From positions 1 to 51,871 of the forward strand of contig CAYTEK010000003.1 in assembly GCA_964436715.1 (NCBI GenBank): a DNA stretch of 51,871 bases, in the 5' to 3' direction. The first letter of the stretch is position 1. Every line of letters begins with the position of its first letter. The stretch is from an uncultured Verrucomicrobiota bacterium. GTDB lineage: Bacteria > Verrucomicrobiota > Kiritimatiellia > CAIQIC01 > Lenti-01. The notes beneath the pieces are model-generated. The model made no database searches, was not told the DNA's origin, and saw only the letters and a list, made by a program, of their open reading frames with translations. The translations under genes and the position numbers were made by a program. This document shows, piece by piece, positions 2,333-51,871 of the stretch.

Positions 2333-3871
2333 CTAGGCCTTGGCGGCTTCGCCCGTCAGGAAGAGGTGCCGACTCAGCGCGTTGACGTAGGCCTTCGCCG
2401 CCGCCCTCACGATGTCGATGTCCGCCCCCTTCGCCGCCACCGTTTCCTCGCCGTACTTCACCTGCACCGAAGCTTCGCCCAAGGCGTCTTCGCCGTGCGT
2501 CACCGCCTGCATCGCGAACGACTTCAGCTCGCCCTTGATGCCGGTGATGCGGTCGATGGCCGTCAGCGCGGCTTCCACCGGGCCGGAGCCCGTCGCGGAA
2601 TCCTGCACGACGACGCCGTCCTTCTCGATCTGCACCGTCGCGGTCGGAATCGACCGGTTGCCGGCCGACACCTGCAGGCACTTGATCGCATACACCCGCG
2701 GCACGTCGGAGATGAATTCCTTCAGCAGCTCGACGATGTCGTCGTCGTAGACCACCTTCTTCTTGTCCGCCAGCGCGATGAAGGCGTCGTAGATGCCCTG
2801 CAGCTGGTCGGCGCTGACCTGGATGCCCATGCGCTTCAGGTGGGCCGCGAAGCCGGCGCGCCCGCTGTGCTTGCCCAGCACCAGATCGGTGCCCGTCACC
2901 ACGCCGACGTCTTCCGGCCGCATGATCTCGTAGGTCTCGCGGTGCTTCAGCATGCCGTCCTGGTGGATGCCCGATTCGTGCGCGAAGGCGTTCGCGCCCA
3001 CGATGGCCTTGTTGCGCTGCACCATCATGCCCGTCAGCTGGCTCACCAGGCGGCTGGTCGCGAACAGTTCCTGCGTCCGCACGCGCGTCTGGATGCCGTA
3101 GTGGTCGTTGCGCACCTTCAGCGCCATCACCAGCTCTTCCAGCGAGCAGTTGCCCGCGCGCTCGCCGATGCCGTTGATGGTGCACTCGACGCCGCGCGCG
3201 CCGCATTCGATCGCCGCCAGCGAATTCGCCACCGCCAAGCCAAGGTCGTTGTGGCAATGCACGTGCACCACCACGTCGGCCAGCTCCGGCACGTGCTCGT
3301 GCAGATAGGTCAGCAGCTTGCGGAATTCCTGCGGCACCGTGAACCCCACCGTGTCGGGGATGTTCACCGTCGTCGCGCCCGCCGCGATCACCGCGCGCAC
3401 CACTTCCGCCAGGAATTCCGGCTCGGTGCGCGACGCGTCTTCGGGGCTGAACTGGACATCCTTGCAGAACTTCTTCGCGTAGGCCACGCCTTCGACGGCC
3501 TGGCGGACGATTTCGTCCTTCGCCTTCTTCAGCTTGAATTCGCGGTGGATCGCGCTCGTCGCCAGGAACACGTGGATCCGCGCGCGGTCGCCCGCGGGCT
3601 TCAGCGCCTCGGCGCATTTCTCGATGTCGCCCTTCACGCAGCGGGCCAGCCCCGCGATGCGGCATTTCTTGATTTCGGCGGCGACTTTCTTCACCGCCTC
3701 GAAGTCGCCCGGCGAGGCCGCCGGAAAGCCGGCTTCGATGATGTCCACGTTCAGTTTTTCGAGCTGCCGCGCCACCTGCAGCTTTTCGTGCAGGCCCATG
3801 CTCGCGCCGGGGCATTGCTCCCCGTCGCGCAGCGTCGTGTCGAAAACAATCACGTGATCCGGTTTTTTCAT
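2333..3871 (-). CDS. leuA: 2-isopropylmalate synthase
   Basis: MKKPDHVIVFDTTLRDGEQCPGASM..., HCHNDLGLAVANSLAA, and a C-terminal LeuA regulatory domain. I moved the start from the track's 3931 to ATG 3871, the conserved N-terminus, which has AGGA about 8 nt upstream. Confidence 0.95.
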   Translation of the reverse strand: MKKPDHVIVFDTTLRDGEQCPGASMGLHEKLQVARQLEKLNVDIIEAGFPAASPGDFEAVKKVAAEIKKCRIAGLARCVKGDIEKCAEALKPAGDRARIHVFLATSAIHREFKLKKAKDEIVRQAVEGVAYAKKFCKDVQFSPEDASRTEPEFLAEVVRAVIAAGATTVNIPDTVGFTVPQEFRKLLTYLHEHVPELADVVVHVHCHNDLGLAVANSLAAIECGARGVECTINGIGERAGNCSLEELVMALKVRNDHYGIQTRVRTQELFATSRLVSQLTGMMVQRNKAIVGANAFAHESGIHQDGMLKHRETYEIMRPEDVGVVTGTDLVLGKHSGRAGFAAHLKRMGIQVSADQLQGIYDAFIALADKKKVVYDDDIVELLKEFISDVPRVYAIKCLQVSAGNRSIPTATVQIEKDGVVVQDSATGSGPVEAALTAIDRITGIKGELKSFAMQAVTHGEDALGEASVQVKYGEETVAAKGADIDIVRAAAKAYVNALSRHLFLTGEAAKA

Positions 3872-7301: not shown

Positions 7302-8138
7302 CTATTGAATGACGAGGCGCGTGGCCTTCATCAGGGCCTTCCACAGCTTCTCGGGCGTGTCCGCCTCGAAGAGCTTGTCGCGGTTTTCCGCCTTCTGGAA
7401 CACCTGCGAGAGGCCGGCGATCAGCTTGAGATAGAACGCGCTGGCGGCCGTGGGAATCACCATGAAGAACACGATGCGCGTGCCAGCCTTGCCGGCCGGA
7501 TCGAACTTGATGCCCTTGGGCGCGATGCCCAGCGCCAAGGTCAGCGCGCCGCCTTCGATGCAGCGCACGTGGGGAAACGCGATGCCGTTTTCCACGGCGG
7601 TCGTCACGATCGCTTCGCGCTTGAGGGCGGATTCCAGCAGCTTGTCGGCGTTGTCCACGAAGCCTTCGGCGGCCAGCTTCCGGCACATTTCGGCCAGCAC
7701 CGCGTCGCGGTCCGCGCCCTTCAGCGCCGGGATCATCAGCGTTTCGGCGGAAAACCGCTCGATGCCGATCTTGGGCGGATCGCTGCGGCGCGGGGACTTG
7801 CGGGTGTTGCGCGCGCCGGATTCCTGGTAGAACAGCAGGCGGGCGCAGGCGGGACAATGGTAGATCCGTTCGGCGGCGTGCACTTGGTGCACCAGCGACA
7901 CCGGCAGCGTCATGCCGCAGGCGGTGCACACGCCGTTGACCACCGGCACGATGGCCAAGGGATTCTTTTGCAGCAGCCGCGAAAACTGCTGGCCGACGTC
8001 GGCGGGGATTTCCTTGGTGAGCGACGCGATCGAGGCATCCAGCTGGTCGAGCTGGGCGCCCGGCATGCCGGCTTCCTGCTGCGCGCGGGCGATGATGAGT
8101 TCCTGAAGTTGGACGAGAAGATTAATGGTCGGTTGCAT
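7302..8138 (-). CDS. C4 zinc-ribbon (CT398/DUF164-type) fused to a PTS EIIA-type-2 (PtsN/EIIA-Ntr-like) domain
   Basis: The N-terminus has a coiled-coil-like segment followed by VCTACGMTLPVSLVHQVHAAERIYHCPACARLLF (CxxC...CxxC). The C-terminus is an EIIA-2 fold with ENGIAFPHVR (phosphorylatable His region) and IVFFMVIP. Confidence 0.75.
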   Translation of the reverse strand: MQPTINLLVQLQELIIARAQQEAGMPGAQLDQLDASIASLTKEIPADVGQQFSRLLQKNPLAIVPVVNGVCTACGMTLPVSLVHQVHAAERIYHCPACARLLFYQESGARNTRKSPRRSDPPKIGIERFSAETLMIPALKGADRDAVLAEMCRKLAAEGFVDNADKLLESALKREAIVTTAVENGIAFPHVRCIEGGALTLALGIAPKGIKFDPAGKAGTRIVFFMVIPTAASAFYLKLIAGLSQVFQKAENRDKLFEADTPEKLWKALMKATRLVIQ

Positions 8139-16482: not shown

Positions 16483-17177
16483 AGAACCTAGACGTGCTGG
16501 ACGTGCTGGATCGTTTCCAGGAATTGCGGGAGCAGCTGGAGCCGGGGCGGGTCGTGCTGGCGCGGCTGGCGTCGCTGGCGGCTGCGTGCGCGGCGGCGGG
16601 CAGGTCCCGCGTCATCTACGAGCGGCGGGGCACCGGCAGCCAGGTGCACCGGGCGTTCCCGCTGCTGGGCATCTCCATCACCACGCTGTTCATCGGCGTG
16701 CAATTGTCCATTCCCCTGTCGCTCGGCCTGCTCGGCGCGCTGTCGATCATCCGCTTCCGCACGCCGATCAAGGAACCCGAGGAAGTCGGATTCATCATGC
16801 TGGTGATCGCCGCGGCGGTTTCGGCGGCCACGTTCAATTTCCGCTTCCTGGTGCTGCTGTACGTCGTGGCGCTCGCCAGCCTGCTGCTGGCGCGGGGCGC
16901 GCGGGCGTGGACGTTCCTGCGGCGCGACGGCGTGCTGGTGCTGACCTTGCCGGCGGAAGGTGCCGCCGCCCACGTGGCCGCCGTCGAGACCGTCCTCAAA
17001 GCCCGACTGCGCCGGCACCGGCTGGAAAGCGCCGCCTGCCGCGACGGCACCGCCAGCTACCAGTTCGTGTTCTCCGGCCTGCGGGACGGCGTGCCCGAAC
17101 TGCAGGCGGAACTCGCCGCGCGGGCGCCCCTGCGTTCCCTGAACGTTTTCCTGGACCGCCCCGGTGGCCTGCGCTGA
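16479..17177 (+). CDS. DUF4956 membrane protein
   Basis: LSLGLLGALSIIRFRTPIKEPEEVGFIMLVI is the DUF4956 signature as I recall it. Start GTG 16479 overlaps the VTC TGA (GTGA). The frame matches track ORF 16209..17177. Confidence 0.7.
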   Translation: MKNLDVLDVLDRFQELREQLEPGRVVLARLASLAAACAAAGRSRVIYERRGTGSQVHRAFPLLGISITTLFIGVQLSIPLSLGLLGALSIIRFRTPIKEPEEVGFIMLVIAAAVSAATFNFRFLVLLYVVALASLLLARGARAWTFLRRDGVLVLTLPAEGAAAHVAAVETVLKARLRRHRLESAACRDGTASYQFVFSGLRDGVPELQAELAARAPLRSLNVFLDRPGGLR

Positions 17178-27566: not shown

Positions 27567-28886
27567 ATGAGTTCCGCCGCCCATTTTTTCGACCGCCACG
27601 CCGCCGGCGCCCTGCTGTTCTTGGCCGTCCTCTATGCCGGTGGCGGCCACTATGGCCTCGTGCGGTGGCGCTTGGCGAACGCGCCGACCCCGGCGGCGAT
27701 TCCCGCGCCCGATTGGGAAGCCGAGTATCCCTTCCCGGCCGGCCTCGAACCCCCGCCCCGCGTCGCCGCTTCTCCAAGCCCCGCCGACGATGAAACGGCC
27801 GCCCCCGCGGGGCGCTTCAAGGCCCGCGCGCCACGCCGAATCCAGCGCATCGAGACTTTTGCCCGCGAAAACGCCCTGCTGCGCCTTCCGCTTTCCGAAG
27901 CGAACATGGCTTTCCGGCGATTCGCGGGCATGCGGCTGTTTCCCGACGCCGACGACGTCCTGCGCTTGAACAACGGTTGGCTGGACCTGCCCAGCGTCGC
28001 GGCGGACGTCGATTACGACGCCGATCAAATCGCCGCGTTGCGCGACCATTGCGCCGCCCGGGGCATGGGATTCCTTTACGTCGCGGCTCCCGGCAAATGC
28101 GACCGGTTGGATACCCAACTTCCCGCGGGATTCGCGGATTTCGCCAACCCCAACGTCGATCGTTTCGCGGCCCGGCTGGCGGAACGCGGCGTGCCTTGCC
28201 TGGATCTGCGCGAGCCCCTCCGCCGGGATTTCGCGGATCGCTGGAACGCGTTTTTCCGCACTGATCACCACTGGAAGCCCGAAGCGGGTTTGTGGGCCGC
28301 CGGCCAGATCGCGGCGGAATTGAATCGGCGCTTCGATTTCGGCATCCCCGCCGGCCTGCTGGCCCCCACCCACTACGCCGTCGAAGTCCGGCCGGCATTT
28401 TTCCTGGGCTCGCTGGGCAAGAAAGTCACCCGCGCCTACGTCGCGCCCGACGATTTTTCCCTGCTGACGCCCAAGTTCAAAAGCCGCTTGAGCCTGGACA
28501 TTCCGACTCGCCGCGTGCGGCAAACGGGATCCTTCCGCCGGGCGCTGATCGATGCGCGCCAGATCGCCCGGCGCAATCTCTATGGCCGCAATCCCTATGC
28601 CGCCTACCTCTACGGCGATTCCGCCTTTCTCGCGATCACCAACCATCTTCGGCCGGACGGCCGGCGACTGCTGGTGGTGAAAGATTCGACCGCCAACGTC
28701 GTCCTGCCGTTTCTGGCGCTCGGCACGGCGGCGCTGGAAGCCGTGGACCTGCGGCATTTCAACGGCAGTCTCCGCGCGTTGATCGACCGCCGCCGACCGG
28801 ACGCCGTGGTGGTGCTCTATGGCGCCCGAAGCATCCGCACAACCACGCCGGCGACTCCGCGCAACGGCTGTTTCCGGCTCGAATGA
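27567..28886 (+). CDS. DHHW-family protein (AlgJ/AlgX-like SGNH partner of MBOAT)
   Basis: An N-terminal TM and the signature FFRTDHHWKPEAG. It lies directly downstream of the MBOAT gene. Confidence 0.8.
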   Translation: MSSAAHFFDRHAAGALLFLAVLYAGGGHYGLVRWRLANAPTPAAIPAPDWEAEYPFPAGLEPPPRVAASPSPADDETAAPAGRFKARAPRRIQRIETFARENALLRLPLSEANMAFRRFAGMRLFPDADDVLRLNNGWLDLPSVAADVDYDADQIAALRDHCAARGMGFLYVAAPGKCDRLDTQLPAGFADFANPNVDRFAARLAERGVPCLDLREPLRRDFADRWNAFFRTDHHWKPEAGLWAAGQIAAELNRRFDFGIPAGLLAPTHYAVEVRPAFFLGSLGKKVTRAYVAPDDFSLLTPKFKSRLSLDIPTRRVRQTGSFRRALIDARQIARRNLYGRNPYAAYLYGDSAFLAITNHLRPDGRRLLVVKDSTANVVLPFLALGTAALEAVDLRHFNGSLRALIDRRRPDAVVVLYGARSIRTTTPATPRNGCFRLE

Positions 28887-34415: not shown

Positions 34416-36383
34416 CTATCTGTGCGGAAGAGGTTTTTCCATTCGATAGTACAGATCCTTTCGGACGCGTCCGAGCGGAATCGCCCAAGGTTCCCGCCAT
34501 TCCGTTTCCGACAACAGCAAATACCGAACCTTCAACCGGTCCAGGTCCGCCCGGCACAATTTCCACCTGATCATGTCGCGGCTTTTCAGAACCGCTTCAC
34601 TTTCGTTGCCCGGAACGAGTTCGACCGAAACGTGGGCGTAACGGTTCCAAACCGATGCGAACTTGCGGTCGGGATCAATCGCGAGCCACAAGGCGGTTTG
34701 CGCAGTGAAATGGATGCCGTTCACGCAGGCCAGGCCGTTTGCAATCAACAATTGGGCTCGCGATTTTTCGTTGGTCAGCCAGCGACCCGCGCCGAATTCC
34801 CGCTGGATTTCCCGGGCACGAGCCGCGACCTGTTTGTGCAGCAGCGGGCTGGCACCGACGCAGAGGGGATGGACGAACGCGCCGGTCAGCAAAGAACACG
34901 CCAGATAGCCGCCCAAAAAGAGGAACCGGTTCACGCGCAACAACCCCGCACTCAGCACCCCAAACAGGCCGACTCCTGCGATCAGCATGACGATGCCGGT
35001 CGCCGGTTCCGCGTCCGCGAAGTAGTCCCAGGCCTTTTCATCGATGCGCAACAGAATTCCCAAACTCAACAATGCGACAACGAGCCAACCCAGCGTTTTC
35101 GGCCAGGACAGGCGCACGGCGCGCCGGCGGCAATGATCGAACGCCTTGAACGTCAACAGCAAGAACACGAAGGACATCCCGACCGGCGCACGATGCGGCG
35201 CCACGAGGAAAAGGCCCGTGCATTGGGCCACGGACTCCGGCCAAGTAAAAAGCATCCAGCCGATCAACACGCCGCCATACGCACACAAAACGCACCCGAA
35301 CCATGGCCGTTTCTTCCCGCCCTGCCGCCAAGCCTGCAGGCCGAGACCGGCCAAAGCAACGAACGGAACCGCATACACGCTGACCACGCAGTTGTTCATG
35401 AACTGCACATCCAGGAAAGCAGTGAACAGGCAAAGCAACGCATAGGCGAAAAATCCCACATGTCCTTGGAACGTCCCGCCAAGATACAGGCGGTGGCCCG
35501 GATAAGCGGAATGGCGAATGACGTTCAGCGCTTCCCGGTGAACTGCGAGAAAATAGATTCCTTCGGCAACGACCAGTCCCAGCACCACCCCAAGAATGAT
35601 CATGGCTTGGCAGCGGTTACCGCCCGCCTCCCAGGCGCGCCGCGTCAGATCCGCCGCCAGCAAGAGCCACAGATAGCCCAGCATCAACTGAAACGGCGGA
35701 TAGAACGAGTACGCGTAGGAGCAGAGCGCGACCAGCAGACCAACGCCCCACAATCCTTGCGCGAGCGGCCGGCGCGCGGCGATCAAACGGTAAAGGCACA
35801 CGAGCCCGGCGAAAAAATAGAGCAGCAGATACGGCACAGACGTGTCCCACCACTGGGTCGGCGCCCCCCAACAGATGGCCAATGCGCCCACGACGGCCAG
35901 GCTTTTGTCCCCACGGGTCCAGATCAGGAAGAACTCCAGCGCGAACAGGAAAAGGCCGAGGTAGCGGATCCACCAGTTCCAGGCCAAGCCGCGTTCGGCG
36001 CCGAACAGGAAATAGCCCCAATTGTGCGCTTGGCCGACGGCGGTCCAATCCCAGACGGGACAAGCGGGCATCGCCAAGAACATGTCCATGCCGCCGCCGA
36101 TGCGGTCGTTGATGCGCGGGAAGAAATCCGGATGGGCGCATTGCGCCAGCACGGCCGGAGTCGAAACCCGCCATTCGTCGCTGCGGATCGCGCGCCACCG
36201 GCCGATTTCGTGAAAGCGGTATTCCGTCGTCGCATCCGGGAACAAGACGTCCCAGGCACCCAGCGAAAAGCCGTGGATGTTTCCGAAAACCAGCAAGGCG
36301 AAAACGAGCAGTCCAAGGCCCCACCGGAATCGAAACGTCCAAGATCCTCCGTACGCCAACCAAATGGCCCACGCGCGCGCCAC
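34416..36383 (-). CDS. polytopic membrane protein of unknown function (candidate glycan polymerase / GT-C-like)
   Basis: 655 aa with more than 10 hydrophobic helices and a soluble C-terminal domain of about 150 aa. I recognise no motif. GTG start. GC is visibly lower than in the neighbours. Confidence 0.45.
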   Translation of the reverse strand: MARAWAIWLAYGGSWTFRFRWGLGLLVFALLVFGNIHGFSLGAWDVLFPDATTEYRFHEIGRWRAIRSDEWRVSTPAVLAQCAHPDFFPRINDRIGGGMDMFLAMPACPVWDWTAVGQAHNWGYFLFGAERGLAWNWWIRYLGLFLFALEFFLIWTRGDKSLAVVGALAICWGAPTQWWDTSVPYLLLYFFAGLVCLYRLIAARRPLAQGLWGVGLLVALCSYAYSFYPPFQLMLGYLWLLLAADLTRRAWEAGGNRCQAMIILGVVLGLVVAEGIYFLAVHREALNVIRHSAYPGHRLYLGGTFQGHVGFFAYALLCLFTAFLDVQFMNNCVVSVYAVPFVALAGLGLQAWRQGGKKRPWFGCVLCAYGGVLIGWMLFTWPESVAQCTGLFLVAPHRAPVGMSFVFLLLTFKAFDHCRRRAVRLSWPKTLGWLVVALLSLGILLRIDEKAWDYFADAEPATGIVMLIAGVGLFGVLSAGLLRVNRFLFLGGYLACSLLTGAFVHPLCVGASPLLHKQVAARAREIQREFGAGRWLTNEKSRAQLLIANGLACVNGIHFTAQTALWLAIDPDRKFASVWNRYAHVSVELVPGNESEAVLKSRDMIRWKLCRADLDRLKVRYLLLSETEWREPWAIPLGRVRKDLYYRMEKPLPHR

Positions 36384-44204: not shown

Positions 44205-45067
44205 GGTTGTTCTTTCGCGGGCAACCCGGCGGCGCGGACCGCCAGCAGGTTCTGGAACTGGAAGATTTCGTTGCGCGGCTGGTAGGGGCCCAGCGGAATC
44301 AAGCGCCGCGTGTCCAGCCGGAAAAACCGGTAATCGGGCAGCAGGTCGTAGAAATCCCGCAGGAACACCCGCGCCGCGACGTTCATTTCGTTGAATTCGA
44401 ACAGGATCGCGCCGATGCGCCCGCCGCGGATCAGGTTTTCCGCCCCCTGCAAGACGGCGAATTCGTTGCCCTCCGTGTCGATCTTCAGAAAATCGATGGT
44501 TTCCCACTGCTGCTCGGCGGCCACGGCGTCCAGCGTGCGCAGGCGGATCGTTTCGGCCACGGCGTCCGCGAAGCGATGCATGGAACGCGCCACTTCGGGG
44601 TACAGGCTCGCCAGCGAACTGAGATCCTCGCGGGACGAACGATAGATGGGCGCCGTCGCCTCCTGCCGGCCGAGGCCGACGTCGAAGCACCGCACGTCCA
44701 GCCCCCGCACGTTCTCCTGCAACTTCGCGAACGTCGCCGCGACGGGTTCGAAGGCGCAGATCGCGGCCGCGGGAAATTGGGCCCGCAGCCGGCGCGCGAA
44801 CTCGCCGACGTTGGCGCCGACGTCCACCAGCACGGGCTGCGGCCGGGAAATCCAGCGCGGCAGCTCGTTCCGGATCAGGTGTTCCTCGCCCGTGACGTCC
44901 AGGTTTTGATATTTCAGGATGCCCATTTCCCGATGGGCCAGGCCGAGCAGATCGATGCCGGCCACGTGCGCCACCTGGCGGATGATCCGCCGGCAGCGCT
45001 CCGGTCCGAGGCGCCGGGCGCCCCAACGTTGAAGGGCATCTAGCATTCGCATGGTTGGCTGCTCCAT
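44201..45067 (-). CDS. FkbM-family methyltransferase
   Basis: VLVDVGANVGEFA...IDFLKIDTEGNEFAVLQGA. The start is ambiguous: ATGs at 45067, 45052 and 45046 all overlap the end of the Wzt C-terminal ORF. Confidence 0.8.
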   Translation of the reverse strand: MEQPTMRMLDALQRWGARRLGPERCRRIIRQVAHVAGIDLLGLAHREMGILKYQNLDVTGEEHLIRNELPRWISRPQPVLVDVGANVGEFARRLRAQFPAAAICAFEPVAATFAKLQENVRGLDVRCFDVGLGRQEATAPIYRSSREDLSSLASLYPEVARSMHRFADAVAETIRLRTLDAVAAEQQWETIDFLKIDTEGNEFAVLQGAENLIRGGRIGAILFEFNEMNVAARVFLRDFYDLLPDYRFFRLDTRRLIPLGPYQPRNEIFQFQNLLAVRAAGLPAKEQP

Positions 45068-46338
45068 TGGCTGCGGATCAAGACGGCGCAGTGGGCGGGC
45101 AGGCCCTTGCTGCCCGTGCCGAAATAGTCGCCGCCTTCAACGACGATTTCCGCGGCGCGGGACACGCAATCCAAGACCTCCGTTTCGCCTTTCGACAGGA
45201 ACACGGTGGCGAAATACGCGCCCTCCGCCAAGTTGAAATCCCGCACCGCGCATTCGATGCGCGTCGCGGGCGCCTCCAAATTCCGGTTTTCGTTCGTGAA
45301 ACTGGTCCGCACGAGCCAAACCGTTTCGTCCCGGCGGTCGCGCAGGGCGATGCTGGCCACGACGTTCGTCAACGGCGCGACGCCGGCGCCCAGCTGGCAC
45401 TCCAGGCAAAATCGATAGGACCGCCCCGACTGCAGCACGGCTTGGCGCCGGCCGGTCTCGTCGACGACGTAGAAATCCGCGACTTTCGCGCGTCCCGAGC
45501 CCGAACGATCCTGGCGTTCCCGGAGCGGCACGACCTTGGCGCCGTTTTCCAAGGCCTCCAGATAGCCGCGGATCACGTCCGCGCAGGGCCCCAGGCGCGC
45601 CAGTTGGCCGTCCTTCAGCCAGATCGCGCGGGAACAGAGGTGTTCGACGGCGGCCATGTTGTGGCTGACGAACAGGACGGTGCGGCCCTGCCGGGCGACG
45701 TCGTCCATCTTGCCGAGGTTTTTTTTTTTTTATTAGTCGTCGACCTAGTTCTACACCTCGTCCACCAGCAGGATTTCCGGCTCCAGATGCGCCGCCACCG
45801 CGAATGCCAACCGCACGTACATCCCGCTCGAGTAGCGCTTCACCGGCGTGTCGATGAACTTCTCGATCTCCGAAAACGCCACGATTTCGTCGAATTTCGC
45901 CGCGATTTCGCGCTTCTTCATGCCCAGGATCGTCCCGTTCAGGAAGACGTTCTCCCGCCCCGTCAGCTCCGGATGGAACCCCGTGCCCACTTCCAGCAGC
46001 GACCCCACCCGGCCGTTGATGACGGCTTCGCCGGTCGTCGGCTCCGTGATCCGCGTCAGAATCTTAAGCAGCGTGGCCTTGCCCGCCCCGGTGCGCCCGA
46101 TGACGCCGACCACCTCTCCCGGCTGCACCTCGAACGACACGTCCCGCAGCGCCCAGAACTCCGGATTGCGCTCCCGCGGCTTTTCGCCGAGCTTGCCCAT
46201 GTGCGCCGCCGGATCCCGGCCGCGCAGCTTGAGCCAGCCATAGCGCAGCTCGTCCCCCAGCGTCCGGCGGTTGATCTCTCCCAGCCGGTACATCTTCGAG
46301 AGATTGCGGACGGAAATTGCGGGAATGCTGGATTGCAT
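45040..46338 (-). pseudogene. wzt: Wzt/TagH-type polysaccharide-export ABC ATPase with a C-terminal Wzt_C-like binding domain, interrupted by an in-frame stop-codon block
   Basis: ORF 45751..46338 has Walker A GRTGAGKATLL, the Q-loop, the signature YSSGM and Walker B ILLVDEV, then TAG. ORF 45040..45708 is in the same frame and resumes with LGK-MDDVARQGRTVLFVSHNM (H-loop) plus a beta-sandwich-like tail of about 170 aa. I moved the start to ATG 46338 because the track's 46344 is TTG. Confidence 0.85.
45718..45753 (-). other. anomalous 36-nt AT-rich block replacing the D-loop codons of wzt
   Basis: The minus-strand codons are TAG AAC TAG GTC GAC GAC TAA TAA AAA AAA AAA AAC. On the plus strand there is a T13 run at 45719-45731 and GTCGAC at 45736-45741. 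It is the only such composition in the window. Confidence 0.9.
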
Positions 46339-46362
46339 GATCAATTGAGATTGCGGGATTGC
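46302..46362. repeat. array of GATTGCGG(G)-type motifs, 3' flank of the four-helix-bundle cassette (runs into the wzt 5' codons)
   Basis: gattgcgg at 46302-46309, aattgcgggaatg at 46316-46328, gattgca at 46331-46337, and gattgcgggattgc at 46349-46362. Confidence 0.7.
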
Positions 46363-46748
46363 TTGAGGGGAGAAGAACAGCCTCTTTTAATGGAGGCAAA
46401 AAGCCGAAGCAATTCATCTGCTTCCGACATCAATGGGGCCAGAACCTTCTGGCTGGCGCAAGGAGCAGGATGGAGATCGGACAGCGCTTCCAGCCAAAAC
46501 AGCGTTTCGTCTGCTTCTTTTTCGACGATCCCGATCTTGTGCGCAAAATCCGCGGCGGATTCGGCCCGCGTGGCTTCGCGATAATTGGCCCCCATGGACG
46601 CCGCCGATTTGCCCAATTGGAAAGCAATCACCTGGGTCGAAATCGCCTTGGACAGTTCATCCACGAACTTGAAAACCTGGACCGCGAACGTTCGAGTCCG
46701 GGTTTTCAGCCATTTCTTGAATTCCGCCTTGTCCATCCGCTCACTCAT
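46341..46748 (-). CDS. four-helix-bundle protein (23S rRNA intervening-sequence protein family)
   Basis: MSERMDKAEFKKWLKTRTRTFAVQVFKFVDELSK...QLGKSAASMGANYREATRAES..DFAHKIGIVEKEADETLFWLE. The gene has lower GC and is wedged between wzm and wzt. Confidence 0.8.
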   Translation of the reverse strand: MSERMDKAEFKKWLKTRTRTFAVQVFKFVDELSKAISTQVIAFQLGKSAASMGANYREATRAESAADFAHKIGIVEKEADETLFWLEALSDLHPAPCASQKVLAPLMSEADELLRLFASIKRGCSSPLKQSRNLN

Positions 46749-46756
46749 GTTTTGTT

Positions 46757-46830
46757 CCCGCAATCCCGCACTTCTGCAATCATTGCATTCCCGCAATCCC
46801 ACATTCCCACAATCTTGCACTCCCACAATC
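46757..46830. repeat. array of about five degenerate 16-17-nt units carrying CCCGCAATC / CCCACAATC, inverted relative to 46302-46362
   Basis: cccgcaatccc at 46757-46767, ctgcaatc at 46774-46781, cccgcaatccc at 46790-46800, cccacaatc at 46806-46814, and cccacaatc at 46822-46830. The array lies between the wzm stop and the four-helix-bundle start. Confidence 0.75.
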
Positions 46831-46843
46831 TTTCGCTTCCCGC

Positions 46844-47680
46844 TCACGCCACGTCCACGAACGTGCGCTGCGCCCGATTGAACGCCAGCAGCCCGATCGC
46901 CAGCAGCACCAGCGCCGCGGCCGTGCCGGCCGCGGCCTGCGCGACGGCGAAGGTGCCGTGGCCGGTCAGGCAGCGGCGCGTCGCCTCCACGACCCAGGCC
47001 ATCGGATTGACCGCCACGATCCAGCGCCATTGTTCCCCGACCGAACTGGAGGGATAAATGACCGGCGAGGCGTACATCCACAGTTGCGACAGAAACGGCA
47101 GGAAAAACTTCACGTCTCGATAGCGGATCGTCGTGGAAGCGAGCAGCAGGCCCATGGCGACGCCCAAGATCGCCGCCACGACCAGCACCGGCAAGAATCC
47201 CAGCATGTGCCAGGCCGGCGGCAACGCGACGCCCGCCCGGAACCGATAGTACAGCCAAAATCCCAGGAACATCGCGAAATTCAAGCCCAGCGTCGCGACA
47301 TTGGCCAACACCTTCACCACCGGCACGCACAGGCGCGGAAAATAGACCTTCCCGAACAAAGCCACGTTGCCCGTCAGCGTGCCGGCGATGGAATTCATGC
47401 AGTTCGCGAAGAAATTCCAGGCCAGCATGCCGCCCATGTAGAACAGGATCGGCGGCACGCCGTCCGTGCCGATCTTCGCGATGTGGCCGAACACCACGGT
47501 GAACACCAGCGTCGTCAGCAGCGGCTGGATCACGAACCACGTCGGTCCCAGCACGCTTTGCTTGTAGGCGGAGGTCAGATCCCGCTGAGCCATGATCCCG
47601 ATCAGGTCGCGGTATTCCCAGATTTCCCGGAAATCGATCCGCCACCAAGGCACATTGGCTCGAATGAGGGTCGGTCGCAT
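46844..47680 (-). CDS. wzm: ABC-2-type polysaccharide export permease
   Basis: 278 aa. FREIWEYRDLIGIMAQRDLTSAYKQSVLGPTWFVIQPLL, six TM segments, and YFPRL. Confidence 0.9.
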   Translation of the reverse strand: MRPTLIRANVPWWRIDFREIWEYRDLIGIMAQRDLTSAYKQSVLGPTWFVIQPLLTTLVFTVVFGHIAKIGTDGVPPILFYMGGMLAWNFFANCMNSIAGTLTGNVALFGKVYFPRLCVPVVKVLANVATLGLNFAMFLGFWLYYRFRAGVALPPAWHMLGFLPVLVVAAILGVAMGLLLASTTIRYRDVKFFLPFLSQLWMYASPVIYPSSSVGEQWRWIVAVNPMAWVVEATRRCLTGHGTFAVAQAAAGTAAALVLLAIGLLAFNRAQRTFVDVA

Positions 47681-48256: not shown

Positions 48257-48266
48257 CCCGCGGCGT

Positions 48267-51200
48267 TCAATTCATCTTGAACCAGGAATAGATCAGGGAG
48301 TTCAGCAGAACGGGCTGGCGGTCGGTGCCGCCGAGGCTCTTCACCAGCGTCGCGCCGGTCTGGGACGACAAGACGTACCATTTGCCGCCGGCGGGATGAT
48401 ACACGGCCAGGTCGGCCTTCCCGTCGCCGTCGTAGTCCGCCGGCACCGGCAGCGTTGCCGACCAGCCGAAGCCCTGCGCGAGGCCGCCCCCGCCGCTGTA
48501 CGCGATCTGCCACGTCCCGTTGGCGCGCGTGAACGTCGCGCAATCGGCTTTCCCGTCGCCGTCGTAGTCCGCCGGCACCGGCAGCGCCTTGCCCCCGCCC
48601 AAATGGACCACCCCGCCGCTGGATAGGTACCAGTTTCCGCTCGCGGGATGGTACGCCGCGATTTCGACCGCCCCGTTGCCGTCGTAGTCCGCCGGCACGG
48701 GAACCACCGCCGACCAGCCGTACGCCAAGTTGTAGTCCGTCCCGCTCTGGCTGTACCGGAAGTACCACCGCGCCGTGGGCCGGTAAAACACCGCCAAGTC
48801 CGCCCGCCCGTCGCCATCGTAGTCCCCCGGCAACGGAATCGTCGCCGACCACCCGAACGACTCGACGCGGTCGCCCGCGGACGATTGGCGGACGTACCAC
48901 TTGCCGCCGGCCGGATGGTACACCGCCAGGTCCACCGTGCCGTCCCCGTCGTAGTCCGCCGGCACCGGCACCGTCGCCGACCACCCGAAGGCCGTCGTCG
49001 CGCTGCCGCCGCCGCTGTACGCGAAACCCCAGTTCCCGTTCGCCGGCCGGTACGTCGCCGCGTCCGCCGCCCCGTCCCCGTCGAAATCGGCCGCCACTTC
49101 CGGCAATGCGACGCCCGGCAACTGGGTCACAACGCACGTGCGAACCACTCCGCCGCCGGCAACGACGATGGCGCCGTAGCGGTAGGCGCCGGCGTTTGCG
49201 GCCACGTCGTAGACGACGGTGCCGTTGCCGCTGCCCGAACTTCCTCCGGAGATCGACAGCCAGGGAGCGGTGGCCGCCGCCGTCCAGTCCACGGTGGCCG
49301 ACACCGCGAGCGACACGCCGTTGGCCCCAGCCGCCGCCAGATTGGTGCTCGCGGGCGACAGAATCGGCCTCACCACGGGCGCGCCGCCGCGGGGACTGTC
49401 GTTTCGCCAAACGTGCAGCCGCGCATAATCGTCGTAGGCGATGCCGGCGAGATCCAAATCGCCGTCGCCGTCGAGATCGATCAGCCGCGCGCCCAGATGG
49501 TTCTCTTCACCCGATCCGACCAGATGCTCCGAGAAAGCGCCGGATCCGTCGTTGCCGAACACGCTGATGCGCTTGTCTCCCCGATGTTCGGCCAAGACGA
49601 GATCGAGATCGCCGTCCCGATCCACGTCGCCGCCGTCCATGCTGTTGAGCGTGTAGCGGGTGGTCACCCAATGGCGCGTCCAATTGCCGTTGGTGGGCGA
49701 AGCGGCGGGCTGCTCCCACCAATAGGCCAGCGCGTCCGGAAGGCTTCCGGCGTTTTCTTCGGTAACGGCGACGTCGGGGCGTCCGTCGCCGTTGAAATCG
49801 CCCGCTTCGCAGCGATCGGGCCAATCCGCCTCCGCGAACGTGCCCACGACGAAAACCGGCCAGGGACTCGAGCCGTCGCCCGGGTTGCGCGCCCATTTCA
49901 CCTGTTTGCTGGCGCCGCCGGTGAACGCGAGGTCGAGGCGCCCGTCGCCGTCGAAATCGGCCAAGTCCACGCCCTCGTCGGAATCGTTGGCCGCAATCCA
50001 TACCCGCGGCCACGCGCCCGCCGCCGGGTTCGCGGGGACCGTGAAATAGCAGGGGCCTTGGGAGGTCGAAATCACGATTTCCGGCCGGTCGCCGGCCGCG
50101 ATCTGGGCCAAGCGGCTGCCTTGGAATCCGGCGGGATGTTCGCTGTTCGGCACTTCACCGAATTTCACGACCGCATGCCAATCGGTGCCGGCGGCGTCCT
50201 GCGCTTCGTACCAGTACAAGTCGATCCGGTTCGCTGCGGAATTCGGGCGCATGGCAAGCCAATCCGCGCGGTCGTCGCCATCCACGTCGAGGGCTTGGAA
50301 CAGGTGGATGTCGGCATCCACCGTCGTTTGGATCCACGCGCCGGTCAGGCTGCCGCCGGGATTCCGATAGAGATATCGCCCGCTGGCCACGTCTTGGTCG
50401 CCGTCCGCATCCACGTCGGCGAACGCCATCCCGAAGGTGCGCTCGTGCCGATCGGACACCCTCACGTACCGCCAAAAATCGAGACTGGGCGGGCCGCCGG
50501 CGTTGCTGCGGTAAACGTAGGACGGCGCGGCGTTCCAATTCACGACGCCCACGATGTCGAGATCGCCGTCGTTGTCGACGTCGCCGAGTTCCGCGCTGTA
50601 GCTGCCTTCGCTCTGGATGATCTGCGGGGTCCAGGATGCGCCGGCCCCCGCGTTGAGGAACAATCGCAGCCCGCGGTGCGTCGACTGGGGCATGCCGCCC
50701 GTCAAGACGTCCCGATCGCCGTCGAGATCCGCGTCGTACACCTGCAACGTGTGGGCGTAATCGACGATCGCCACCGGGTGGGCGCTCCAGGCGCCGTTCG
50801 CGCGGCGATACCACGTGACGGCATAGCCGGCCCGCTCGGAATGGGAAAACGCGACGTCGTTGGTCCCATCGCCATCCACGTCGCCCACCGCCACCTTGCA
50901 GGAATTGGCGGTCCAATCGCCGGTCTGGTCGTACCACTGCGAATCGATGGATTGGTACGCGTAGTTGCCCGCGCTCCGGCAGGCGGCCGGAGCGTTGGGC
51001 GTGGCGAACCAAAAACCGTTGAGAACCACGTCGAGATCGCCATCCATGTCGAGATCGCCGAGTTCCATGCCTTCGTGCGCCCCATGGACGAGCCGCACCT
51101 CCGTCCAGCGATTCGTTTCGTTGAACCAGATCTGGGTCAGGGAATCTTCGCGATACACGAGATCGAGCCGGCCATCTCGATCGAGATCGCCGACCGCGAT

Positions 51201-51650: not shown

Positions 51651-51686
51651 GTTGCGTGACGACTATTGAAAGTCCGGCCGCACAAT

Positions 51687-51871
51687 TCAATTCATTTTGA
51701 ACCAGGAATGAATGAGCGAATTCAGCAGGACGGGCTGGCGGTCGGAGCCGCCGAGGCTCTTCACCAGCGTCGCGCCGGTCTGGGACGACAAGACGTACCA
51801 TTTGCCGCCGGCGGGATGATACACGGCCAGGTCGGCCTTCCCGTCGCCGTCGTAGTCCGCCGGCACCGGCA
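51687..51871 (-). CDS. second FG-GAP/VCBS paralog, 3' end only (continues beyond the right edge)
   Basis: The minus-strand translation ends ...PVPADYDGDGKADLAVYHPAGGKWYVLSSQTGATLVKSLGGSDRQPVLLNSLIHSWFKMN*. Positions 51747-51871 are identical to 48327-48451. Confidence 0.8.
   Translation of the reverse strand, partial: PVPADYDGDGKADLAVYHPAGGKWYVLSSQTGATLVKSLGGSDRQPVLLNSLIHSWFKMN

Follow-up and report, generated by a model that had tools for sequence, protein, structure and literature searches.

How does a gene for the ATPase of a glycan exporter come to carry, amid otherwise ordinary coding sequence, a run of twelve codons of which four are stops? The question is raised by contig CAYTEK010000003.1 of a metagenome-assembled genome (MAG; GCA_964436715.1) of an uncultured Verrucomicrobiota bacterium, analysed over its positions 1 to 51,871 (hereafter, the window), in which the wzt gene, encoding the ATPase of a Wzm/Wzt-type exporter, is split by a 36-nt block at 45718-45753 on the minus strand. 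The answer is that the block is not a real genomic feature. Very probably, it is no mutation but a base-calling artefact that was fixed into a low-coverage metagenome-assembled contig, in which the signal of an Illumina flow-cell oligo was superimposed on the native bases. The biological interest of the block is accordingly low, and its residual value is that of a quality-control warning and a decoding test.

The block and its host gene

Two features define the problem:

45040..46338, minus strand: wzt, 432 codons and a stop codon with the block read as native; the record splits it into open reading frames (ORFs) of 195 aa and 222 aa.
45718..45753, minus strand: the stop and poly-A block, filling 12 D-loop codons of wzt; native in relatives TTGGCGGTGGGCGACGTGTCGTTCCAGAAAAAGTGC (LAVGDVSFQKKC).

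When re-read, the minus strand of the block proves to be TAGAACTAGGTCGACGACTAATAAAAAAAAAAAAAC (codons TAG AAC TAG, GTC GAC GAC, TAA TAA, three times AAA, and AAC), preceded by ...CTG CTG GTG GAC GAG GTG and followed by CTC GGC AAG ATG GAC GAC..., and it contains four in-frame stops, a GTCGAC (SalI) site and a run of 13 A's (A13), just as the preliminary description of this DNA had it. On the plus strand, the run is a T13 at 45719-45731, the sole homopolymer longer than 7 nt across the window, the GC content of which is 67.5%. The reading frames on the two sides are, as had been proposed, halves of one Wzt: the ORF 5' of the block (45754-46338, minus strand) carries an ABC_tran domain (PF00005, E = 1e-20), the ORF 3' of it (45043-45717, minus strand) carries a Wzt_C domain (PF14524, E = 6e-17), and the joined protein of 432 aa, with 12 X residues standing for the block, aligns without gaps to the Wzt structures of Aquifex aeolicus (8dku/6amx, E ~1e-60). 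The X residues coincide exactly with the D-loop, DEaLAVGDahFQqKCfrKL. The in-frame, length-preserving replacement of 12 codons is real in the deposited sequence, and the original reading of it as an exact exchange of the D-loop, with neither indel nor frameshift, is borne out by this coincidence and by the native 36 nt of the relatives.

Compared with its family, the deposited Wzt retains the nucleotide-binding ABC_tran domain and the C-terminal, carbohydrate-binding Wzt_C domain, and departs from it at two motifs: the Walker A consensus GxxGxGK[ST] is replaced by GRTGAGKA, and the place of the D-loop L-A-V-G-D-x-x-F-x-x-K-C after Walker B is taken by the 12 codons with four stops. The adjoining wzm gene is present, upstream of both halves (ABC-2 permease, PF01061, E = 3e-22, at 46847-47680), and the wzm-wzt gene order is kept in relatives.

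46844..47680, minus strand: wzm, which encodes the ABC-2 permease that pairs with Wzt; undamaged, and the same as the copy in relatives.

Between wzm and wzt lies a gene for a 135-aa 23S_rRNA_IVP/four-helix-bundle protein (46347-46760, minus strand; PF05635, E = 9e-12), the position of which is kept in all related assemblies.

An exact search of a collection of 15 billion proteins found both half-proteins, of 195 aa and 222 aa, on record from NCBI, each from a single contig of the window's length, and the window's own 1127-aa FG-GAP protein is likewise on record from NCBI; the window, therefore, is an entire contig, and the block belongs to the GenBank deposit of the MAG, so that the idea of a block planted or edited into the window was rejected. 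The same collection has no record of the 432-aa protein that results when the block is repaired and the amino-acid variants of the window are kept.

The same site in other assemblies

This contig comes from an uncultured population that metagenomes of many environmental samples have captured repeatedly. Is the block found anywhere else in it? Exact-protein look-ups of neighbouring genes led to records of the same population in JGI samples 3300023207, 3300023203, 3300021561, 3300021843 and 3300020813, ENA records ERZ22666005, ERZ22666157 and ERZ22666155, Logan run ERR12510824, and NCBI assembly GCA_030154545.1. At least eight independent assemblies of this strain population carry the native 36 nt within an intact 432-aa gene. 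Their identity to the window is 98.1-99.96%, the best two reaching 99.86% across all of it and 99.96% across 7.8 kb. In every record that spans the site, TTGGCGGTGGGCGACGTGTCGTTCCAGAAAAAGTGC, encoding LAVGDVSFQKKC, stands between flanks identical to those of the window, and the block is absent from all of these at least eight independent records. Slightly different yet normal D-loop alleles are seen in L012 and L010, and all nine Wzt proteins that share a cluster with the window's have both GRNGAGKS and LAVGDxxFQKKC. A search for the two flanks separated by any 36 nt gave no match in genome contigs and two matches in metagenome contigs, both unrelated Wzt with normal D-loops.

The block is a lesion private to one record, and is not shared by related strains as that of a genuine pseudogene might be; wzt is almost certainly intact in the organism. 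A GC-rich 36-nt segment encoding L-A-V-G-D..F..K-C had been named beforehand as the sign that the block would be an artefact of this record, and such a segment, encoding LAVGDVSFQKKC, is what the near-identical relatives carry. The claim that the only exporter ATPase of the locus had been knocked out finds no support as biology, given the intact gene of the relatives and the prediction of the block by the overlay described below.

The co-occurring strains present a further facet of this gene. The nucleotide-binding half of Wzt is nearly identical among them, whereas the C-terminal (Wzt_C) halves or the N-termini differ (L010, 1-100; P0002; P0005): L010 changes at the D-loop to an allele that is ~80% identical, and P0002 combines the same nucleotide-binding domain with a different C-terminal domain. 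Together with contigs of other assemblies that break inside the domain, this pattern suggests either that the glycan-recognition domain is exchanged as a module or that assemblies are chimeric at the shared segment.

A two-colour overlay of native and adapter bases

The block derives from the sequence that it replaces and is not foreign. When block and native sequence are compared in register, 18 of the 36 bases are equal (permutation P = 1e-5), with native bases at 11 of the 15 non-A positions of the block and all seven native A's retained. On the minus strand, the 18 changes are T>A, G>A, C>A, G>C or G>T, and each of them, 18 of 18, is a gain of signal in the two-colour code in which T is recorded as green, C as red, A as both and G as neither (PMC13218037). 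Given the sites, a pattern of signal gain only has a probability of 5e-5; for the absence of native A's from the sites that changed, the probability is 0.004.

Several other sources of such a tract were considered and rejected. A recurrent cassette or vector finds no support in the lack of any match to the block in viral contigs, 596 Gbp of genomes and 72,556 plasmids, or in its single copy in the window, where neither a second copy nor a donor copy was found. Adenine mutagenesis of the kind carried out by diversity-generating retroelements was brought to mind by the 14 of 18 changes that involve A and by the neighbouring Avd-like 23S_rRNA_IVP gene, and was rejected because both versions occur at one locus in different records, four mismatches do not involve A, and the overlay accounts for all changes. 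Deaminase-type or oxidative damage was rejected as well, the changes to A arising from T, G and C alike.

What, then, was added to the native bases? Under the two-colour code, the mixing of two signals follows a simple rule: G with any base gives the other base, C with T gives A, and any base with A gives A. If the block is the sum of the native sequence and a second signal, that signal must conform to KMGAWCTMGGTSGNSGMCKWAKMWWNANNNNNAMAS. Candidates were sought among common adapters, shifted copies of the native sequence and the two strands of the entire contig, and the only second signal that fits is the reverse complement of the P5 flow-cell oligo (hereafter, P5rc) followed by A's. The logical OR of the native sequence with GTGTAGATCTCGGTGGTCGCCGTATCATT, nine A's and then darkness equals the deposited sequence, with 0 mismatches over 75 nt and 39 of 39 fit positions in agreement. 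The parts of the second signal map as follows:

45728..45756, minus strand: footprint of GTGTAGATCTCGGTGGTCGCCGTATCATT, the reverse complement of the Illumina P5 flow-cell oligo (overlay fit; PMC13584795).
45719..45727, minus strand: stretch over which the overlay adds nine A's, read off the poly-T linker that the grafted P5 oligo bears (PMC13584795, PMC11123353).

The most telling positions are 5, 8, 17, 20, 23 and 25 of the block, where one component contributes C, the other T, and the record has A, which is neither. A model in which one of the two bases is picked accounts for just 30 of the 36 positions, and no model of consensus, ligation or a four-colour instrument in which the brighter base wins would yield A at these six. 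The overlay fixes the sequence fully, with the offset as the sole free parameter; the chance that a random 26-mer fits is 2.9e-11, or ~2e-8 after correction for the ~720 offsets and adapters tried. The placement is unique on both strands (2 x 51.9 kb), the next best having 13 mismatches, and among the 24 possible encodings of bases by channels, the one with dark G and two-channel A is the only one that fits 39 of 39 positions (28 of 39 at most for any other), in agreement with the published encoding (PMC13218037). Phasing or pre-phasing, with the native sequence shifted by 1-6 nt in either direction as the second signal, was rejected (7-20 violations), as were TruSeq R1, Nextera and P7 (at least 5 violations).

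The boundaries of the overlay are equally sharp. The first four bases of the second signal, GTGT (45756-45753), are the same as the native ones, so that no change is visible there; adapter or index bases further upstream do not fit (position -4, for instance, would turn to A), and the second signal, consequently, begins exactly at the first base of P5rc. At the other end, the overlay ceases after 45719, and 45718 is the native C. The overlay creates the stops as a by-product, and likewise the SalI site and the A13 run. A known flow-cell oligo, then, accounts for a sequence that is absent from at least eight independent assemblies, as expected of an Illumina adapter artefact. Among the three origins initially entertained, an artefact of assembly or record is upheld by the overlay fit and the native relatives, and the engineered edit and the recombination scar fall away.

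Other read-level errors in the record

The block is not the only error in this record. As a reference for the whole window, a 65.8-kb JGI contig was rebuilt from three pieces (L006, L018 and L024), and each difference was polarised with 2-8 other records. The rebuilt contig differs from the window by 74 substitutions and 0 indels in 51,871 nt; 48 of these substitutions are private to the window, 18 in the block and 30 elsewhere. The 30 private substitutions outside the block comprise 5 transitions and 25 transversions (ratio 0.2), with 15 nonsynonymous and 6 synonymous changes; 13 are T>G or A>C, 19 copy the adjacent base, and 26 lie within 60 nt of another, against a random expectation of 1.9. 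Real polymorphism between the strains has a transition to transversion ratio of ~2-2.6 and a synonymous to nonsynonymous ratio of ~2:1, and the private changes differ from it in both respects (Fisher P = 1e-7 and 4e-4, respectively). Being unlike strain polymorphism, this spectrum lacks the mutational and selective signature of a genuine pseudogene. An excess of T>G and A>C is a type of artefact described for two-colour NovaSeq data (PMC13218037); by manual count, 8 of the 13 private T>G or A>C changes fit the NT[TG] context in which NovaSeq T>G errors are enriched, which is not significant.

Two of the private clusters deserve separate lines:

46066..46091, minus strand: Walker A substitution cluster in wzt, private to the window (46091, 46077, 46066).
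16541..16564, plus strand: private error cluster of four T>G in 24 nt, all nonsynonymous, in the DUF4956 gene.

The first of these turns Walker A GRNGAGKSTLL into GRTGAGKATLL (N83T, S88A and one synonymous change, in wzt codons 83-91). Its changes are of the T>G/A>C type and absent from all relatives, and we judge this lesion to be an error of the same class as the other private clusters. Further clusters are located at 2373-2425, 3238-3242, 4374, 4690, 27811-27832, 36262-36279, 48833 and both contig ends; the private clusters are mostly nonsynonymous and affect the genes for LeuA, a BPD permease, DUF4956, ALGX and DUF7657. With such a spectrum of read errors, proteins predicted from the record carry false amino-acid changes.

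Other records have flaws of their own. The JGI contig Ga0255811_10802111 (L006/L018/L024) has 11 private singletons, all T>G or A>C, at window positions 7485, 10605, 16268, 16656, 21247, 29624, 31167, 40340, 42027, 45338 and 49309, one of them an apparent D334A in the Wzt of that contig. They, too, are of the type described for two-colour NovaSeq data (PMC13218037), so that this kind of sequencing error is seen in a second record. At the end of the window, the C-terminal repeat region of the 1127-aa FG-GAP protein recurs at the end of the preceding paralogous gene (48266-49100 and 51686-51871); the copies are 95.7% identical over 186 nt, the contig ends inside the repeat, and differences between assemblies concentrate there (48675-48930, 51822-51846). 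This stretch is probably unreliable in all records.

A possible origin of the block

The overlay invites a scenario for how such a read could come about. The second signal is what a read yields in its last 29 nt on running off the library molecule into the flow cell. It consists of GTGTAGATCTCGGTGGTCGCCGTATCATT, which complements the grafted P5 oligo, then of nine A's copied from the poly-T linker of the oligo, and then of no signal; the abrupt return to native sequence is explained by the end of the template at that point. We infer that, as the cluster was amplified, the grafted oligo, with its 3' end ...ACAC, primed wrongly at the internal GTGT and so produced a sub-population of truncated strands within one cluster. 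The two strand populations would be in phase up to GTGT, after which the minor one would report adapter and linker for ~35 cycles and then stop, the result being a single read with clean flanks and a garbled middle.

Public viral contigs contain what look like relatives of this event. Literal P5rc followed by A10 or more is present in 13 contigs of IMG/VR, in two of which (L066, 12501-12536; L118, 754-789) the P5 complement (TAGATCTCGGTGGTCGCCGTATCATT) is followed by exactly A10 and is internal: genomic sequence at GTT or GTG joins directly to TAGATCTCGG...ATCATT and A10, after which genomic sequence resumes, and in L118 the reading frame stays open across the adapter block. Both blocks are probably instances of this artefact in which the adapter signal prevailed. 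For length preservation in L118, the open frame is the sole support, Pfam, PDB and phage BLAST having given no informative match. The other 11 contigs show ordinary adapter read-through with poly-A at their ends. A degenerate overlay pattern was also run against viral contigs, but 1,565 of its 1,783 matches are plain poly-A, and blended cases are not countable in this way. With a query that included the adapter block, matches of at least 95% identity were also obtained in 24 phage records, among them phages of Escherichia, Salmonella and Listeria; as the matched query ranges are not shown, adapter remnants there are no more than suspected.

Why would an assembler keep such a read? The nucleotide-binding region of wzt is where eight contigs of other assemblies have one of their ends, and these breaks, together with the allele switch in L010 and the different C-terminal domain of P0002, mark the region as a branch point shared by strains. 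At such a breakpoint of the assembly graph, unique coverage may have been thin enough for a single read to prevail. MEGAHIT rescues some singleton k-mers that bridge solid regions as mercy k-mers (PMC8021871), and rescue of this kind is one possible route of entry for the aberrant read.

Several points weigh against this account. The case is built on deposited sequences. The grafted P5 oligo bears a 5' T10 linker (PMC13584795, PMC11123353), which predicts ten A's, whereas nine fit and 45718 is still the native C. Four in-frame stops fall in the tail of what the overlay yields at random sites of the contig (P ~0.004), where the same operation creates at least one stop in a given frame in 53% of cases and at least four in 0.4%. 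The internal mis-priming, for which a microhomology of 4 nt and two analogous public contigs speak, is a hypothesis, and the entry of one aberrant read into the consensus is something that we infer rather than have observed.

Alternative explanations

The alternative that survives best shares the optical overlay and differs only in the source of the second strand, which would be an index-2 product that was not stripped and extended through P5, to be read in the first ~38 cycles of Read 2, or else a second template in a polyclonal nanowell. Taken together, these options are possible, but we regard them as rather unlikely. The start of the second signal at the first base of P5rc, which is where the i5 index read stops, speaks for them, as does the misfit of the preceding adapter and index bases upstream. 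The index-2 product, however, implies a read starting at 45756, which, taken alone, would have no link to the upstream flank in a de Bruijn graph; it leaves the identity of native and adapter bases at GTGT (~1/256) as a coincidence; and the joins of P5rc with exactly A10 in L066 and L118 are better suited to strands mis-primed in the middle of a read.

Literal contamination, whether by physical adapter DNA or by an adapter read left untrimmed, and whether through assembly or through chimeric ligation, is highly improbable, even though the second component is the P5 adapter and literal P5rc with poly-A is common at the ends of public contigs. Just 25 of the 36 block positions match adapter and A9, six agree with neither component, and at each adapter G the native base remains visible, a mixture that optics can produce and ligation or consensus cannot.

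A genuine, strain-specific inactivation of wzt, with a 36-nt tract of substitutions left, for instance, by hypermutation or gene conversion, seems more improbable still. The block does stand in the deposited record and splits the gene, and a second damaging change in the same gene, Walker A S88A, is what relaxed selection might permit. Against this, no relative has the block and the window has no donor copy, the adapter overlay predicts the block exactly, and the changes in Walker A are part of a set of error-like T>G/A>C clusters found throughout the contig, in the genes for LeuA, ALGX and DUF4956 among others. Finally, a stop cassette or vector sequence put in by design, for all the designed look of several stops, a SalI site and a poly-A run, can be dismissed almost entirely, given 18 of 36 native bases in register, the lack of a match in the genomes, viral contigs and plasmids searched, and a source in an uncultured population of many environmental samples.

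Implications

With the block attributed to base calling, the glycan locus would best be treated as having a presumably working Wzm/Wzt exporter, and pseudogene counts, estimates of pathway completeness or a 'loss of O-antigen export' would be in error if they were derived from this MAG. Copies of the artefact are already in circulation: both fragments are in protein collections, and the one of 195 aa serves as a cluster representative. The blended adapter, at 25 identical positions out of 36, should escape sequence-based screens for adapters. There is about an even chance, in our estimate, that the block is one case of a wider and largely unrecognised class of errors, in which adapter and linker signal, blended with the template on two-colour Illumina instruments, creates length-preserving false pseudogenes in low-coverage metagenome assemblies; if so, decoding a suspect tract as 'native OR adapter' against a close relative could reveal such errors systematically. 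The more general warning is that lesions found in a single record of a low-coverage MAG are not to be taken as biology.

Comparison with known systems

The native gene is a normal member of the Wzt/TagH/KpsT-type ATPases (Aquifex Wzt, 8dku/6amx), with the LAVGDxxFQxKC D-loop in all relatives. Unlike genuine Wzt, the deposited copy, and it alone, is altered at the D-loop and at the Walker A serine, both of which are explained as errors. The mercy k-mers of MEGAHIT (PMC8021871) show how a single aberrant read, clean at both flanks, could span a coverage gap and become contig sequence, as may have happened in this record. Adapter read-through (...AGATCGGAAGAGCGTCGTGTAGGGAAAGAGTGTAGATCTCGGTGGTCGCCGTATCATT and poly-A) has in common with the block a terminal P5 complement followed by A's from the T-linker; the block differs in being optically blended with its template, inside a contig, length-preserving and without the AGATCGGAAGAG part, its identity to adapter and A9 being partial. 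The known two-colour artefacts, poly-G tails and the T>G/A>C excess of the NovaSeq 6000 (PMC13218037), obey the same channel logic. They, however, represent loss of signal, whereas the block represents gain of signal from a second template in the cluster.

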